64,000 nucleotides of DNA, from the sequence record NC_028847.1; one strand, written 5' to 3'. Position 1 is the stretch's first letter. Each line of letters opens with the position of its first letter. The notes under the pieces are model-generated. The model made no database searches. It saw only the letters and a program-made list of their open reading frames with translations, and was not told the DNA's origin. The position numbers and the translations under genes are program-made. Shown one piece after another: positions 2 to 5,520 of this stretch. The stretch comes from Escherichia phage QL01.

Positions 2-1858
2 CAGATTACTAATGAAGTTGAACTGGTCGACTTATTTGGAGGTCCTAATAACGAAGTTGCTGATTACTTCATGTCGGGTATGAACTTCCTCCAGTATGGT
101 AACGACCTTCGTACTGTTCGTGTTGTTAACCGTGAATTCGCTAAAAACGCGTCTCCGGTAGCGGGTAACGTCCAAACCACTATTACTACTGCAGGTTCTA
201 ACTATGCGGTAGGCGATAAAATTAATATCAAATATAACCAGACTGTTGTTGAATCTGAAGGTCGTGTGACTTCTGTAGATACGGATGGTAAAATTCTTTC
301 CGTGTTTATCCCATCAGCAAAAATTATTGCTTATGCACGTTCTTTAAACCAGTATCCGAACCTCGGCCCGGCATGGACTGCTGAAGTAACTTCTGCCTCT
401 TCAGGTGTTTCTGGTACTATTACCGTTGGTAAAATCGTAACCGATTCCGGTATTCTTTTGACCGAAGCAGAGAACAGTGAAGAAGCTATTACTTCCCTAG
501 AATTCCAAGCGTCTCTTAAACAGTTTGGTATGCCTGGCGTGGTCGCTCTTTATCCTGGTGAAATTGGCAGCACCTTAGAAGTAGAAATTGTTTCTAAAGC
601 AGCTTATGATGTCGGTTCTTCTAAAATGCTGGATATTTATCCTGGCGGTGGTACCCGTGCTTCTATTGCCAAGGCAGTATTTAACTACGGCCCACAAACA
701 GATGACCAATACGCAATTATTGTTCGTCGTGATGGCGCTATCGTAGAATCTGTCGTACTTTCTACCAAAGAAGGTGAAAAAGACGTTTACGGTAATAACA
801 TTTATCTTGACGACTATTTCGCTAAAGGTACTTCTAACTATATTTTTGCTACCTCTTTGAATTGGCCTAAAGGCTTCAGTGGTATCATCAATCTTATGGG
901 TGGTGTATCTGCTAACGATCAGGTTACTGCGAGTGATTTGATGCAGGGTTGGGATTTGTTTGCCGACCGTGAAGCACTCCATATTAACCTTTTGATTGCT
1001 GGTGCTGTTGCCGGTGAAGGTGATGAAGTTGCTTCTACCGTCCAGAAACACGTTGTTAGTATTGCTGATGAACGTCAGGATTGCTTGGCATTTATTTCTC
1101 CTCCTAAAGGACTGTTGGTTAACGTTCCATTGACTCGTGCAGTAGATAATCTTATCGACTGGCGTACCGGTGCAGGTACTTTCGATACCAACAACATGAA
1201 CATTAGCACCACTTATGCTGCTATTGATGGTAACTATAAATATCAGTATGACAAATATAATGACGTAAACCGTTGGGTGCCTCTGGCCGCTGATATGGCT
1301 GGTTTGTGTGCACGTACTGATGATGTTTCTCAGCCTTGGATGTCTCCGGCAGGTTATAACCGTGGCCAGATTCTTAACGTTCTGAAATTGGCAATTGAAC
1401 CGCGCCAAGCTCAACGTGACCGCATGTACCAAGAAGCTATTAACCCAGTTGTTGGTTTTGCTGGTGGCGATGGTTTCGTATTGTTTGGTGATAAGACTGC
1501 AACCAAAGTTCCATCTCCGATGGACCACATTAACGTTCGCCGTCTGTTCAACATGCTTAAGAAAAATATCGGTGATGCCTCTAAATATAAACTGTTTGAA
1601 TTGAACGACAACTTCACTCGTTCAAGCTTCCGTATGGAAGTTTCTCAGTACTTAGATGGTATTAAGGCACTTGGTGGGATTTATGAAGGACGCGTGGTTT
1701 GTGATACTACAGTGAACACCCCTGCGGTTATTGACCGTAACGAGTTTATTGCTAATATATACATCAAACCGGCGAGATCGATAAATTATATCACTCTTAA
1801 TTTCGTGGCTACTTCTACCGGTGCAGATTTTGACGAGTTGATTGGACCACTAGTTTAA
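2..1858 (+). CDS. 18: tail sheath protein gp18 (5' partial; frame open to window start)
   Basis: ORF has no stop upstream of 71 back to position 2; long ORF immediately upstream of gp19 tail tube gene; T4 gene order. Confidence 0.85.
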   Translation, partial: QITNEVELVDLFGGPNNEVADYFMSGMNFLQYGNDLRTVRVVNREFAKNASPVAGNVQTTITTAGSNYAVGDKINIKYNQTVVESEGRVTSVDTDGKILSVFIPSAKIIAYARSLNQYPNLGPAWTAEVTSASSGVSGTITVGKIVTDSGILLTEAENSEEAITSLEFQASLKQFGMPGVVALYPGEIGSTLEVEIVSKAAYDVGSSKMLDIYPGGGTRASIAKAVFNYGPQTDDQYAIIVRRDGAIVESVVLSTKEGEKDVYGNNIYLDDYFAKGTSNYIFATSLNWPKGFSGIINLMGGVSANDQVTASDLMQGWDLFADREALHINLLIAGAVAGEGDEVASTVQKHVVSIADERQDCLAFISPPKGLLVNVPLTRAVDNLIDWRTGAGTFDTNNMNISTTYAAIDGNYKYQYDKYNDVNRWVPLAADMAGLCARTDDVSQPWMSPAGYNRGQILNVLKLAIEPRQAQRDRMYQEAINPVVGFAGGDGFVLFGDKTATKVPSPMDHINVRRLFNMLKKNIGDASKYKLFELNDNFTRSSFRMEVSQYLDGIKALGGIYEGRVVCDTTVNTPAVIDRNEFIANIYIKPARSINYITLNFVATSTGADFDELIGPLV

Positions 1859-1888
1859 GTTTACTTGCTCTAAGCTTTATGGTATAAT
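1859..1888 (+). promoter_or_regulatory. sigma70-type early promoter (GTTTAC-N18-TATAAT) whose -10 overlaps ATG of HNH ORF
   Basis: Motif read directly after gene 18 stop; coordinates approximate. Confidence 0.5.
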
Positions 1889-2543
1889 GCGCGTATACAC
1901 AATACGCGCAAGGATTTCTAAAGTGATTATTACTAAATTTGTTGATGTAAAAATAAATACTAACAATTACAGTTATTTCTTAGACTTAGGGTATGAGTTG
2001 GAACCTCTAGGAGCACCGAAGCATGGGCATAAGTGCCAAACTATTCGAGCAAAAGTTTCTGATTTAAAGGATGGTTCTAATAAAGAAGTTCAATGTATCT
2101 GCGATAAATGTGGCACAGAATTCAAACAAAGGATTGCTAGAAATACCGATGTATGTTATCCTTGTAGGCGTCATGAAGCTCTTATAGGTAACACCAACGG
2201 TAAAGCTAATAAAGGTAAAACTCTACCTCATATGCAAGGTGAAAACCATCCAAGATGGAACCCTAATAAATCTGAATACTTTGCTTATGCATCAAAGGTT
2301 AGAGCTGTTACTTATGCTTGTAAAGACGAGTGGATGGCTTGGGAAAATGCAGATAAAATAGGGTTATGTGGAGTTGAAGGTGCTTACCAATTAGACCATA
2401 AGGTTTCAGTAGCTTATGGATTCTATAACCATATCCCAGCAGAGATAATTGGACAATTATCAAATTTAGAAATAATCACTTGGGAATCCAATAGAGCTAA
2501 AAGTAAGTCTAGTTCAATAGACTTATGGGACTTACTATCCTAA
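1887..2543 (+). CDS. HNH homing endonuclease-like protein (CxxC...CxxC zinc finger plus HNH-type motif LDHK...N...)
   Basis: Translation contains C-x2-C ... C-x2-C and a His/Asn-rich C-terminal motif typical of phage HNH endonucleases; inserted between genes 18 and 19; true start uncertain (ATG 1887 or in-frame GTG ~1923). Confidence 0.65.
   Translation: MRVYTIRARISKVIITKFVDVKINTNNYSYFLDLGYELEPLGAPKHGHKCQTIRAKVSDLKDGSNKEVQCICDKCGTEFKQRIARNTDVCYPCRRHEALIGNTNGKANKGKTLPHMQGENHPRWNPNKSEYFAYASKVRAVTYACKDEWMAWENADKIGLCGVEGAYQLDHKVSVAYGFYNHIPAEIIGQLSNLEIITWESNRAKSKSSSIDLWDLLS
1889..1909 (+). promoter_or_regulatory. GC-rich perfect hairpin (GCGCGTAT-ACACA-ATACGCGC) inside first codons of HNH ORF
   Basis: 8-bp inverted repeat seen in sequence; could sequester translation start. 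Confidence 0.45.
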
Positions 2544-2687
2544 ATAAATTATATCTCCTTAATCTATTATCCCAGGCTGTAATATAAAGAACCTAAAACC
2601 ATTATACCATGAGTTTGGTTACAGCGTACATCACGCAGAATTGCGCCTGGGGTTGATTATTCTTTAGGAATATGATTTATCAACTGT

Positions 2688-2695
2688 TATAAATA
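2688..2695 (+). promoter_or_regulatory. late promoter TATAAATA (gene 19)
   Basis: Exact T4 late promoter consensus about 55 bp upstream of gene 19 ATG. Confidence 0.6.
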
Positions 2696-2708
2696 AATTA
2701 ATCAGAAC

Positions 2709-2729
2709 GTTCCTGGTGTGTCCAGGAAC
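2709..2729 (+). promoter_or_regulatory. hairpin (GTTCCTGG-TGTGT-CCAGGAAC) in gene 19 leader
   Basis: 8-bp perfect inverted repeat between late promoter and SD. Confidence 0.45.
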
Positions 2730-2747
2730 TGACTTAAGAGGCATCCC

Positions 2748-3239
2748 ATGGAGTTGACAGATATCACTCGTGCATTTGAGTCAGGTGACTTTGCACGCCC
2801 TAACCTTTTCGAAGTGGAAATTCCATTTCTTGGTAAAAACTTTAGCTTTAAATGTAAAGCAGCACCAATGCCTGCTGGCATTGTAGAAAAAGTACCGGTT
2901 GGCTACATGAACCGTAAAATTAACGTAGCTGGTGACCGTACGTTTGATGATTGGACAATTACCATTTATAACGATGATGCACATGACACCCGTCAAGCAA
3001 TTGTCGATTGGCAGAATCTCTGTCACGGTATGACCAATGAAATTACCGGTGCAGCACCTGCAGAATATAAGAAACAAGCAGTAGTTCGCCAGTTCCATCG
3101 TGACGGCAAGACTGTGACCAAAGAAGTTACAATTTACGGCTTATGGCCTACTAACGTTGGTGAAGTCCAGATGGACTGGGACTCGAATAACGAGGTAGAA
3201 ACATTTGAAAGCACATTTGCTATTGACTGGTGGGAATAA
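2748..3239 (+). CDS. 19: tail tube protein gp19
   Basis: 163 aa, near-identical blocks to T4 gp19 (TRAFESGDFARPNLF..., LWPTNVGE...DWDSNNE). Confidence 0.96.
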   Translation: MELTDITRAFESGDFARPNLFEVEIPFLGKNFSFKCKAAPMPAGIVEKVPVGYMNRKINVAGDRTFDDWTITIYNDDAHDTRQAIVDWQNLCHGMTNEITGAAPAEYKKQAVVRQFHRDGKTVTKEVTIYGLWPTNVGEVQMDWDSNNEVETFESTFAIDWWE

Positions 3240-3268
3240 GTTTTTACTTTTATAGCAAATTATGATAG

Positions 3269-3276
3269 TATAAATA
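3269..3276 (+). promoter_or_regulatory. late promoter TATAAATA (GIY-YIG endonuclease gene)
   Basis: Consensus motif about 30 bp upstream of ATG 3307. Confidence 0.55.
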
Positions 3277-3306
3277 CATTCAAACAATGAAGTCAAGGAG
3301 TTTAGA

Positions 3307-3888
3307 ATGTATTGTACTTACTTAACCATATACACGGGGTCTAAACTACCCCGTCGTTATATTGGCTCAACATACGTTGAAAGGATTCTCAAAGAAGGAT
3401 ATAATGGTTCTGTATTATCCCAAGCATATAAAAAGATTTGGAATCTAGAACGTAAAGAAAATCCGCACCTTTTCAAAACCAGAATTTTATCTTTATTTGA
3501 AACCGATAAAGAAGCTCGTATAGCTGAGAAAGAGCTTCAAATAAAGTATAATGTAGTTAAATCTAAAAACTATATAAATATGTCATTAGCTCAGCCTGAC
3601 GGGTTCTTTGGAATGTCTCGTAAAGGGATTCCAATGAGTGAACATGCCAAACAGCTACAAAGAGATTGTAGGTTAGGTAAAAAGAGGCCTGAACATTCTA
3701 AAGCTCTAAAAGGACGTAAGCGACCAGACCAAGCCAAAGCTATGTCTGGTGAAGGTAATCCGATGTTTGGTAAAGAACATCCGGCTAAAGGCAAAAAGAT
3801 TAATCAGCCAAGGATGATTTGCCCTATCTGTGGTGTTGAATCAACTCGTTCGGCTATAACACGTTATCACAAACATGAAAATGAATGA
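3307..3888 (+). CDS. GIY-YIG (Seg-like) homing endonuclease
   Basis: N-terminal YLTIY...RRYIGST matches GIY-x10-YIG motif; basic C-terminal DNA-binding region; preceded by TATAAATA and AAGGAG SD. Confidence 0.7.
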   Translation: MYCTYLTIYTGSKLPRRYIGSTYVERILKEGYNGSVLSQAYKKIWNLERKENPHLFKTRILSLFETDKEARIAEKELQIKYNVVKSKNYINMSLAQPDGFFGMSRKGIPMSEHAKQLQRDCRLGKKRPEHSKALKGRKRPDQAKAMSGEGNPMFGKEHPAKGKKINQPRMICPICGVESTRSAITRYHKHENE

Positions 3889-3889
3889 G

Positions 3890-3897
3890 TATAAATA
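3890..3897 (+). promoter_or_regulatory. late promoter TATAAATA (gene 20)
   Basis: Consensus motif immediately after endonuclease stop. Confidence 0.55.
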
Positions 3898-3905
3898 GAA
3901 TTATC

Positions 3906-3923
3906 AAGGAGCTTCGGCTCCTT
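3906..3923 (+). terminator. UUCG-tetraloop hairpin (AAGGAGC-UUCG-GCUCCUU) between endonuclease gene and gene 20
   Basis: Perfect 7-bp stem with UUCG loop seen in sequence. Confidence 0.5.
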
Positions 3924-3945
3924 ATCCCATTCATCGGAGACTCTA

Positions 3946-5520
3946 ATGGCAAACTTTAATACAATATTAAGTTTTCTTAAGCCATGGGCTAATGAAGACG
4001 AAAAAGAATATAAACAACAAATTAATAACAATTTAGAGTCTGTCACCGCACCTAAGCTTGATGATGGCGCTCGCGAAATTGAGACACAAGAGCAAAATAT
4101 TCCTTATAATGCTCTTATGCAACAGATGTTTGGTAGTAATGAGCCTGAAGTTAAAAATACCAGGGAACTTATTGATACCTACCGTAATTTAATGAACAAC
4201 TATGAAGTCGACAACGCCGTACAGGAAATTGTGTCTGACGCTATTGTCTATGAGGATGATAAAGAAGTAGTTGCATTGAATTTAGACGGGACAGAATTTA
4301 GTCAAGCAATTAAAGATAAAATCTTGGCCGAATTCAGTGAAGTTTTAAACCTTTTAAATTTCCAACGTAAAGGTACTGACCATTTCCAACGCTGGTATGT
4401 AGACTCAAGAATTTTCTTTCATAAAATTATAAACCCTAAAAAAATGAAAGATGGCGTACAAGAGCTTCGTCGCTTAGACCCACGCCAAGTCCAATATATT
4501 CGTGAAATCGTTACACGTATGGAAGATGGCGTTAAAGTTGTAGACGGATATCGCGAGTTTTTCGTTTATGATACAGGCCATGAAAGTTATTGCGCTGATG
4601 GACGCATTTATTCAGCCGGGACTAAAGTTAAAATTCCTCGTGCTGCAGTGGTTTATGCTCATTCTGGATTATTAGATTGTTGTGGTAAAAACATCATTGG
4701 CTATTTGCAACGTGCTATTAAGCCTGCAAACCAGCTTAAATTGATGGAAGACGCAATGGTCATCTACCGTATTACACGTGCTCCTGACCGTCGTGTGTTT
4801 TATATCGATACAGGTAATATGCCTTCACGTAAGGCTGCAGCACAAATGCAACATATCATGAACACGATGAAAAACCGTGTGGTGTATGATGCTTCGACAG
4901 GTAAAATTAAAAACCAACAACACAATATGTCCATGACTGAAGACTATTGGTTGCAACGTCGTGATGGTAAAGCGGTAACAGAAGTTGATACAATGCCAGG
5001 TGCTACTGGTATGAGTGATATGGATGACGTTCTTTATTTCCGCACAGCACTTTACCGTGCGTTGCGTGTTCCTGAATCACGTATCCCTAGCGAGTCTAAT
5101 TCTGGTGTTATGTTTGATGCCGGTACAGCAATCACTCGTGACGAATTAAAATTCTCTAAATGGATTCGTCAACTACAAAACAAATTTGAAGAAATTTTCC
5201 TAGACCCGTTAAAAACAAACCTCATTCTTAAAAAGATTATTACAGAAGATGAGTGGGAAAAGGAAATAAATAATATTAAAGTTACGTTTAACCGTGATAG
5301 CTATTTCAGTGAAATGAAAGATGCTGAAATCATGGAACGCAGAATCAATATGCTAACGATGGCTGAACCATTTATTGGTAAGTATATTTCACATCAAACG
5401 GCTATGAAAGATTTCCTCCAAATGACCGACGAAGAAATTAATCAAGAAGCTAAGCAAATTGAAGAAGAGTCTAAAGAGGCTCGTTTCCAAAACCCAGATG
5501 AAGAAGAAGAGGATTTCTAA
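3946..5520 (+). CDS. 20: portal vertex protein gp20
   Basis: 524 aa, same length as T4 gp20 as recalled; position after gene 19. Confidence 0.93.

Follow-up and report, generated by a model that had tools for sequence, protein, structure and literature searches.

The closest described systems are encoded by bacteriophage T4 and comprise the freestanding GIY-YIG homing endonucleases SegE and SegD (Pfam PF19835), the Seg enzymes SegF, SegG, and SegB, and I-TevI, the endonuclease of the td intron. SegF, SegG, and SegB cut a neighboring conserved gene of a relative that lacks the seg gene, some way off the insertion point, and the stretch between the cut and the seg gene is obligatorily co-converted (PMC2988022, PMC2330249). 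For I-TevI, segB, and mobE, a late promoter is combined with a hairpin that blocks the initiation of translation on longer transcripts (PMC2988022). In T4, the SegE gene is flanked by inh/hoc and uvsW and the SegD gene by genes 23 and 24, whereas the seg gene analyzed here lies between genes 19 and 20. The earlier note on this DNA knew of no seg gene at this position in T4, and indeed the T4 19/20 gap measures 83 bp and has no gene inside.

The window, that is, the whole stretch of 64,000 nucleotides that was analyzed, belongs to a T4-like coliphage in the JS98 group (genus Dhakavirus), for which Bp7, vB_EcoM_005, and IME540 are the nearest relatives in the databases (~99% identity). We consider it likely that positions 3240 to 3888 constitute a freestanding Seg-type homing endonuclease cassette with the 3' end of gene 19 as its target. 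SegE is the best profile match of the encoded protein, which has in common with SegE and SegD the signature YIG...GY-GS, an E...(S/T)KNYxN motif past the third strand, a basic C-terminal half, and its encoding by a freestanding gene lodged among conserved genes of the phage. It differs from these two enzymes in that its C terminus has predicted NUMOD3 repeats and a predicted CCHH zinc finger and in that it stays below the Pfam gathering threshold and is known here from its sequence and a structural model. With I-TevI, the window protein shares a NUMOD3 element that matches residues 164 to 204 of the I-TevI DNA-binding domain, and its gene shares the late promoter directly upstream together with a hairpin that occludes initiation, the latter being a prediction for the window (PMC2988022). 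In contrast to I-TevI, however, the window gene is not intron encoded, the protein identity is ~20%, the α1 segment carrying R27 and H31 is shortened, the putative zinc finger is located at the extreme C terminus and not in the linker, and no helix-turn-helix was detected. The window protein follows the modular logic of I-TevI and of the Seg enzymes of T4. The same behavior as for SegF, SegG, and SegB is predicted, with the last 25 to 75 nt of gene 19 as the candidate stretch in the window, although the predicted target differs from theirs in being a late structural gene (tail tube). The window seg gene is a further, uncharacterized case of a well-known kind of mobile element, which databases already call a homing endonuclease or HNH, and it does not alter what is known of the workings of these elements. 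In a search of an incomplete literature collection, general reviews of T4 mobile elements were found but no description of a seg gene in the 19/20 gap.

The gene between genes 19 and 20 and its predicted protein

Positions 3240 to 3945 span exactly, end to end, the 19/20 gap, the flanks of which are set by Pfam and PHROG matches (Table 1). The 193-aa reading frame that the earlier note had placed there is the sole long one in the gap, and it is preceded by the Shine-Dalgarno sequence AAGGAG at 3295 to 3300, 6 nt before the ATG. The encoded protein is identical in Bp7, vB_EcoM_005, and IME540. The sequence TATAAATA is present in 16 copies in the window compared with 6.6 expected, and none of 100 shuffled sequences reached this number. 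One internal copy, at 3573 to 3580, was considered as a promoter for a truncated DNA-binding protein and was rejected because it merely results from the codons that specify N-Y-I-N-M and was found in just three of the eight orthologues examined. An Rfam scan of positions 1800 to 4200 returned a chance-level CrcZ match alone (18 bits against a threshold of 95), and no paralogues of either the seg gene or the reading frame between genes 18 and 19 were found within the window.

Table 1. Features of the gene 18 to gene 20 region, with positions in the window
Feature	Position	Strand	Remarks
Gene 18 (tail sheath)	71-1858		Strong Pfam and PHROG matches
HNH-like reading frame between genes 18 and 19	1887-2543		218 aa
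Gene 19 (tail tube)	2748-3239		Pfam Phage_T4_gp19 at 2.8e-10; PHROG match
Synonymous-substitution tract	3175-3239	+	Final 65 nt of gene 19 (nt 428-492 of the gene); seg linked
Cassette leader	3240-3306	+	Missing from empty-site phages (alignments); carries its own TATAAATA box and AAGGAG
Leader RNA hairpin (predicted)	3267-3318	+	-13.1 kcal/mol; z, -2.7
Late-promoter box of the seg cassette, TATAAATA	3269-3276	+	
Seg-like endonuclease reading frame	3307-3888	+	193 aa; ATG start; stop codon included
Predicted GIY-YIG catalytic domain, SegE type	3307-3621	+	aa 1-105
Basic linker with predicted NUMOD3-type DNA-binding repeats	3622-3819	+	aa 106-171
C-terminal CxxC...HxH zinc-finger-like module	3820-3876	+	C172, C175, H188, H190
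Right junction, GAATGAGTATAAATAG	3883-3898	+	Same as gene 19 end plus promoter in empty sites
Second box, TATAAATA	3890-3897	+	Native gene 20 late promoter
Hairpin AAGGAGC-UUCG-GCUCCUU (predicted fold)	3906-3923	+	7-bp stem, UUCG loop
Gene 20 (portal)	3946-5520		Pfam Portal_T4 at 5e-193; PHROG match

A family set of 152 homologues was collected, and 50 of these were aligned. The ~105 N-terminal residues are strongly conserved in this alignment, with Y9, G11, Y18, Y32, G34, S38, E48, E74, and N91 being invariant across the 50 homologues, and the candidate catalytic residues of the seg protein are Y9, Y18, R26, E74, and N91. Within the GIY-type motif T7-I8-Y9, Y9 aligns with the GIY tyrosine of SegD, SegE, and I-TevI. 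The second-strand motif reads Y18-I19-G20; I19 and G20 are kept in at least 90% of the 50 homologues, and Y18 and G20 do not vary when SegD, SegE, SegG, and I-TevI are aligned with the seg protein. N91 aligns with N90 of I-TevI and with the asparagine of SegD, SegE, and SegG, while E74 aligns with the glutamate of SegD and SegE and is one residue off E75 of I-TevI in the MAFFT alignment. R26 sits in a predicted helix (residues 24 to 30) and is an arginine in eight 19/20 orthologues and a lysine in avDM12, and the position varies in the wider family, some members of which have N or S. It is probably the counterpart of I-TevI R27, with the correspondence being ambiguous in the I-TevI alignment, where R26 adjoins a gap.

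An AlphaFold model calculated from the alignment has a mean pLDDT of 86.8, with values of 97 to 98 for the N-terminal domain. In the model, this domain follows the order strand-strand-helix-helix-strand-helix, a three-stranded sheet with flanking helices, as in the GIY-YIG fold. The best three Foldseek matches are chains of the I-TevI catalytic domain, and the best fold matches are all GIY-YIG nucleases. When the profile of the 50-sequence family was compared with T4 SegE, hhalign returned a probability of 94% (E value of 1.3e-7; 73 columns; 34% identity). PHROG 314, labeled "homing endonuclease," matches the seg protein at 1e-29, and UniRef names likewise refer to a homing endonuclease. The earlier note had proposed a GIY-YIG enzyme with a basic C terminus from the letters of the sequence, and both parts are borne out, with TIY(9) and YIG(18-20) in the N-terminal region and the profile matches just given, albeit without the Pfam thresholds being reached. 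In the note, a protein that profile searches could not assign to GIY-YIG would have counted as a refutation, and this was not the outcome. SegE_GIY-YIG (PF19835) scores 17.6 bits (cutoff, 25) and NUMOD3 scores 16.1 bits at aa 144 to 158 (cutoff, 20.4); PF01541 was not reported, TIGR01453 scores 14.5 against 56, with nothing useful from NCBIfam, and so no Pfam or NCBIfam model attains its curated threshold for the seg protein. A PDB search with the single protein sequence found nothing. Among the 50 family members, PF19835 is matched by 7 and PF01541 by 2, all weakly. These sub-threshold scores are a sensitivity limit of the models and not a failure of structure or motif.

The C-terminal part (residues 101 to 193) has a pI of 10.3, with 22 lysine and arginine residues versus 9 aspartate and glutamate residues. 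NUMOD3 is matched by 37 of the 50 family members, at best with 1.3e-22, and the family profile also matches the I-TevI DNA-binding domain in its NUMOD3 region (PDB 1i3j, E value of 0.0016; hhalign E value of 2.9e-5). Residues 169 to 187 are modeled as a β-hairpin followed by a helix, and the CxxC...HxH module is kept in a subset of the family, with zf-C2H2 being matched by four members. As judged from these comparisons and the model, the seg protein consists of a divergent SegE-type GIY-YIG domain, a basic NUMOD3 linker, and a putative C-terminal CCHH zinc finger.

Cassette boundaries, distribution, and selection

The cassette of ~649 bp starts directly after the stop codon of gene 19. The empty site, as represented by JS98 and PSD9, has a 19/20 gap of 57 bp with the arrangement TGA-G-TATAAATA-GAATTAT-hairpin-...-GGAG-ATG. 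The late promoter that the earlier note had assigned to the seg gene and the second late promoter and UUCG hairpin that it had seen ahead of gene 20 are all present. However, the last two do not belong to the element; the segment from 3890 to 3923 is unchanged in the empty sites of JS98 and PSD9, and this promoter and hairpin are therefore native to the 19/20 intergenic region and lie outside the mobile cassette. The right junction GAATGAGTATAAATAG likewise matches the empty site, and the last codon and the stop codon of seg therefore reuse native sequence. On the other side, the leader contains the motif (T)ATAAATAcATTCAAAyAAyGAAGT, which is conserved in orthologues from other genera.

The cassette is found in 5 of 53 Dhakavirus records, and ~45 Dhakavirus genomes are without the reading frame and have the empty site. 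The gene is located in the same gap and in the same orientation in eight Straboviridae genera, namely, Dhakavirus (window phage, Bp7, vB_EcoM_005, and IME540) and, as orthologues with 49 to 83% identity, Mosugukvirus (Pectobacterium PM2), Kanagawavirus (Kosakonia 305), Jiaodavirus (Klebsiella KP13MC5-5), Karamvirus (Enterobacter myPSH1140 and ZX13), Moonvirus (Citrobacter Moon), Chrysonvirus (Aeromonas avDM12-TAAL), and Lazarusvirus, which belongs to a different subfamily (Acinetobacter Konradin). A 175-kb IMG/VR contig has a 48%-identical relative, also in the 19/20 gap and in the same orientation; at 76 of the 80 IMG/VR loci, the gp19/gp20 flank is missing. The distant homologues examined sit elsewhere, beside gene 39 in HX01 and beside thyA in a Rhizobium phage. 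Within genera, the presence of seg is sporadic (~1 in 140 Jiaodavirus phages and a minority of the phages in Karamvirus, Moonvirus, and Lazarusvirus), and presence or absence with a precise empty site is also seen in four genera besides Dhakavirus.

Pairwise dN/dS values among the orthologues range from 0.10 to 0.23 for the whole protein. Both halves are under purifying selection, which is as strong for the nuclease domain (dN/dS of 0.05 to 0.22) as for the DNA-binding part. As read from the genomes, this distribution combined with purifying selection marks a gene that is active, site specific, and moving horizontally, and the seg gene is real and intact and is very probably active as an endonuclease.

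It is conceivable, if unlikely, that the gene is a decayed or domesticated relic, the product of which binds DNA, for example, to repress the neighboring late promoters, and neither cuts nor homes. The canonical arginine is not invariant across the wider family and the Pfam scores are under threshold, as might be expected of a relic, but Y9, Y18, E74, and N91 are invariant, and it is difficult to reconcile a loss of cutting with a nuclease domain that is selected as strongly as the DNA-binding part over the range given above. A repressor would have a precedent in I-TevI, which doubles as an autorepressor at its late promoter (PMC2988022), and the context GA(TA)G-TATAAATA is common to the seg and gene 20 promoters; however, sporadic presence together with a foreign flanking tract (see below) fits recent mobility and not a host function that has become fixed.

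The end of gene 19 and the predicted homing site

Gene 19 was compared within one genus at a time between a phage with and a phage without seg, and differences at nt ≥425 were set against the total (binomial P values). For the window versus PSD9 (Dhakavirus), 15 of 22 differences fall into this part, all 15 of them at nt 429 to 491 (P of 8e-9). The corresponding numbers are 7 of 9 for KP13MC5-5 versus KP17 in Jiaodavirus (P of 3e-5), 13 of 19 for myPSH1140 versus CC31 in Karamvirus (P of 8e-8), 6 of 12 for Konradin versus AC4 in Lazarusvirus (P of 0.003), and 11 of 22 for Moon versus CF1 in Moonvirus (P of 6e-5). The tract differences are nearly all synonymous, with 0 to 1 amino acid changes per pair in the five pairs, and the gp19 proteins of the window and PSD9 are identical. 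On the other side of the cassette, the first 100 nt of gene 20 contain 0 to 1 differences in 5 of 5 pairs, and over the whole of gene 20, the window and PSD9 differ at 1 of 1575 nt.

The last 92 nt of gene 19 of the window are matched with 100% identity only in three seg-positive Dhakavirus phages. The next-best matches are from Jiaodavirus (91 to 93%), with members of its own genus reaching just ~84%. In view of this 1:1 linkage to seg and of best relatives outside the genus, the Dhakavirus tract appears to be foreign, and its linkage to the cassette is strict. Furthermore, the codon for Ser145 switches between AGY and TCN in several pairs, which points to allele exchange and not to point mutation.

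By analogy with the T4 Seg enzymes, we read the gene 19 tract as a co-conversion tract that would have arisen from a break made in the recipient on the upstream side of the insertion. Three genera (Dhakavirus, Jiaodavirus, and Karamvirus) have the left edge of the tract at nt 429, whereas Moonvirus has it at nt 417 and Lazarusvirus at nt 468. A single fixed left edge as a marker of the cut site was rejected because of these differences among genera, and therefore, only an interval of 25 to 75 nt is given for the cut; a cut or recognition site is predicted within approximately the last 25 to 75 nt of gene 19 (window positions ~3165 to 3239). No nucleotides are common to all seg-positive tracts across the genera, and the direction of the changes differs by genus. 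For SegF and SegG, the distance between cut and insertion is roughly 200 to 330 bp, and in comparison with this distance, the window tract is shorter.

A slightly less probable alternative than a relic is that the gene was acquired through ordinary, endonuclease-independent recombination and that the tract is merely donor flank or a polymorphism hotspot, with no meaning for a target site. T4-like genomes are mosaic, and an insertion acquired in this way would bring donor flank too; however, five genera repeat a one-sided pattern that is dense in gene 19 and leaves 0 to 1 differences in the first 100 nt of gene 20, and the orthologues are always located in exactly the 19/20 gap, while the distant homologues examined are not. 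The variation of the left edge by genus is in line with such recombination. The same applies to a control pair of seg-negative Moonvirus phages, CF1 and Ursula, which also shows an excess in the gene 19 tail (11 of 28 differences); in the seg-negative pair PSD9 and JS98, there is no such excess (4 of 20). In view of CF1 and Ursula, the tract may vary also through causes besides the carriage of seg, for example, past loss or target escape. An analogous one-sided tract at the end of gene 18, beside the other endonuclease gene, also argues against ordinary recombination, as does the co-conversion between cut and insertion site that is documented for T4 Seg enzymes (PMC2988022).

Expression, the proposed homing cycle, and the 18-19-20 region

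The 5' arm of the predicted leader hairpin (3267 to 3285) overlaps the promoter box, its 3' arm (3300 to 3318) spans the seg AUG (3307 to 3309), and the Shine-Dalgarno sequence is located in the loop. Such a leader hairpin is predicted in seven of eight orthologous cassettes, with z scores for the equivalent structure of -3.9 in PM2, -5.9 in Kosakonia 305, -1.35 in Moon, -4.7 in KP13MC5-5, -4.0 in ZX13, and -2.8 in Konradin. In KP13MC5-5, both arms are of other sequence and the Shine-Dalgarno sequence is covered instead. This recurrence was judged from individual folds and not from a formal covariation count because the MAFFT alignment misregisters the 3' arms owing to variable spacing between the Shine-Dalgarno sequence and the AUG. 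T4 late transcripts begin ~6 nt past the promoter box, so that a transcript from the cassette's own promoter is predicted to be without most of the 5' arm and to be translatable. We infer that the leader hairpin may provide translational control of seg in the style of I-TevI.

Taking nuclease activity, cut position, immunity mechanism, promoter use, and hairpin function from the biology of the family, we propose the following cycle for the homing cassette. During coinfection with a relative that lacks seg, the enzyme would bind the intact end of gene 19 together with the adjoining intergenic region and would introduce a double-strand break in roughly the last 25 to 75 nt of gene 19. Repair from the seg-positive genome would then copy the cassette plus the donor version of the gene 19 stretch. 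The seg-positive genome itself would be protected by the insertion, which splits the site, by the synonymous changes in the tract, or by both. The seg gene would be expressed late, from the TATAAATA box of the cassette, with the leader hairpin silencing seg on read-through gene 19 mRNA and the short transcript from its own promoter being translated.

The reading frame in the 18/19 gap is a member of a family that lacks annotation and is characterized by a four-Cys zinc ribbon, the motif GENHPRWNPNK, and, at the C terminus, the pattern YQLDH...NL...W...N..K; 8 of 37 family members match Pfam HNH_4 weakly, and one matches HNH at 4e-5. It is common to the window and PSD9, a 47%-identical member is found in the same gap of Karamvirus, and Bp7 has a distant member of the family that is inserted further downstream. 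In the last 100 nt of gene 18, the window shows 29 differences from JS98, which has an empty site, and 0 from PSD9, and the only amino acid change relative to JS98 in the last 150 nt is one conservative Ile/Val exchange. By these counts, the end of gene 18 shows the same one-sided signature as the end of gene 19. No database phage has both elements together (18/19 and 19/20), as found in the window. The earlier note had seen two endonuclease families on either side of gene 19 and a possible hotspot. The first point agrees with an HNH-like frame at 18/19 and a GIY-YIG frame at 19/20, and the hotspot for endonuclease genes in the 18-19-20 region is supported by junctions that are both polymorphic in Dhakavirus, Karamvirus, Moonvirus, and Lazarusvirus.

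The remaining reading, by far the least probable, that the seg protein is itself an HNH endonuclease, as it is named by RefSeq in Bp7, vB_EcoM_005, PM2, Moon, Kosakonia 305, and Konradin, has these product names and the label of PHROG 10820 as its only arguments and is refuted by the best fold matches, which include no HNH structure, by the profile match to T4 SegE together with the UniRef and PHROG 314 designations, by the lack of a His-Asn-His/Asn motif, and by the lack of any HNH family among the Pfam matches of the 50 family members. The RefSeq designation "HNH endonuclease" for these proteins is a mislabel. This work therefore flags a systematic RefSeq error ("HNH" for GIY-YIG) as well as a divergent GIY-YIG subfamily that is missed by Pfam models.

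The seg gene adds to the catalogue of T4-type freestanding endonucleases a defined predicted homing site, the 3' end of the tail tube gene 19, and a compact 193-aa enzyme with a predicted GIY-YIG, NUMOD3, and zinc finger architecture. It further shows that the core late-gene block 18-19-20, usually deemed stable, repeatedly receives endonuclease genes of two unrelated families in several genera. This bears on the origin of mosaicism within conserved structural modules and on phylogenies based on gp19 or gp20. A wider view, which we put forward tentatively and which is more doubtful than the homing cassette itself, would be that the gene represents an undescribed, Pfam-invisible Seg branch that homes to the tail-tube/portal junction in at least eight Straboviridae genera, that the gene 19 tract records an ongoing arms race, and that gene 19, being doubly flanked through the additional HNH-like element at 18/19, is preferentially inherited in mixed infections. 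If there is such an arms race, seg-positive phages would hold an "immune" allele, and some seg-negative phages would hold escape or ex-seg alleles. If gene 19 is doubly flanked in this sense, marker exclusion would act on a core structural gene, both between and within genera.

The gene 19 tail of Ursula, a phage without seg, resembles that of the seg-positive Moon and is an example of a possible escape or ex-seg allele. Other insertions are seen at the 18/19 and 19/20 junctions in other phages.

The gap between the tail sheath and tail tube genes

In phage QL01, an ORF also occupies the gap between gene 18 (tail sheath) and gene 19 (tail tube). The family to which its product belongs is unassigned in Pfam. 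The protein combines a zinc ribbon of four Cys residues with two motifs, GENHPRWNPNK and, in the C-terminal part, DH..N..N; both its fold and its weak Pfam matches point to HNH. Over its final 100 nt, gene 18 differs at 29 positions from that of the Dhakavirus phage JS98, in which the site is empty, and at none from that of PSD9, which also has this ORF. Within the last 150 nt of gene 18, the only amino acid change from JS98 is one Ile/Val exchange. From these comparisons, the ORF looks like another homing element, and the end of gene 18 like the co-conversion tract that belongs to it.

The native intergenic sequence that follows the ORF is predicted to form a long, stable RNA structure, and none of 200 shuffled sequences folded as well. 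An Rfam scan gave no match for this structure, and the late-promoter box of gene 19 (2688-2695) lies directly downstream of it.

Features at the two gaps (window coordinates)
Feature	Position	Strand	Details
3'-terminal 100 nt of gene 18	1759-1858	+	29 differences from JS98, none from PSD9
ORF between genes 18 and 19	1887-2543	+	218 aa
Stable fold in native 18/19 intergenic region	2544-2690	+	-39 kcal/mol, z -4.7
Perfect TATAAATA within seg	3573-3580	+	codons for N-Y-I-N-M, catalytic Asn among them

Co-occurrence of the two endonuclease genes

None of 50,697 phage records contains together the two endonuclease genes found at 1859-3945 of the window, namely the 18/19 ORF and seg, the GIY-YIG (Seg-type) endonuclease ORF between genes 19 and 20 (portal). 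Within the same records, coverage of positions 2400-4200 reached at most 88%, in phages of the Bp7 type, the 18/19 gap of which holds an occupant different from that of the window. Phages of the PSD9 type have the 18/19 ORF and an empty 19/20 gap. On the basis of these sequence matches, QL01 looks like a recombinant of Bp7-type and PSD9-type phages.

Consequences and possible traces of seg insertion

In several other genera, a GC-rich stem-loop directly follows gene 19 when the 19/20 gap is empty; its loop is UUCG in KP17 and CC31, and of the GAAA type in CF1 and T4. This stem-loop, probably a terminator or stabilizer, is the element whose place the seg cassette takes in those genera. Dhakavirus phages have a hairpin downstream of the gene 20 promoter, which is kept despite the insertion; seg insertion therefore leads to the loss of a probable terminator or stabilizer in some genera but not in Dhakavirus.

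Citrobacter phage Ursula lacks seg in its 19/20 gap, but the last 68 nt of its gene 19 differ at 6 positions from those of Moon, which has seg, versus 11 from those of CF1, which does not. Ursula may have acquired this Moon-like tail by once carrying seg and losing it, or the tail may be an escape allele that resists cleavage. The 18/19 gap of Ursula holds an annotated HNH gene.

The perfect TATAAATA within seg was considered as an internal promoter and rejected; since only three of the eight orthologues examined carry the box, it is probably a coding coincidence.

Annotation of relatives

The RefSeq name for the GIY-YIG orthologues in Bp7, PM2, Moon, Konradin, and Kosakonia 305 is "HNH endonuclease," and in the myPSH1140 record, both seg and the HNH-like 18/19 ORF are unannotated. 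Gene 20, a single ORF of 524 codons in the window, is annotated in the Bp7 record (3592-5165) as two coding sequences (3592-3915 and 3921-5165), a split that is probably due to a frameshift or a sequencing error.
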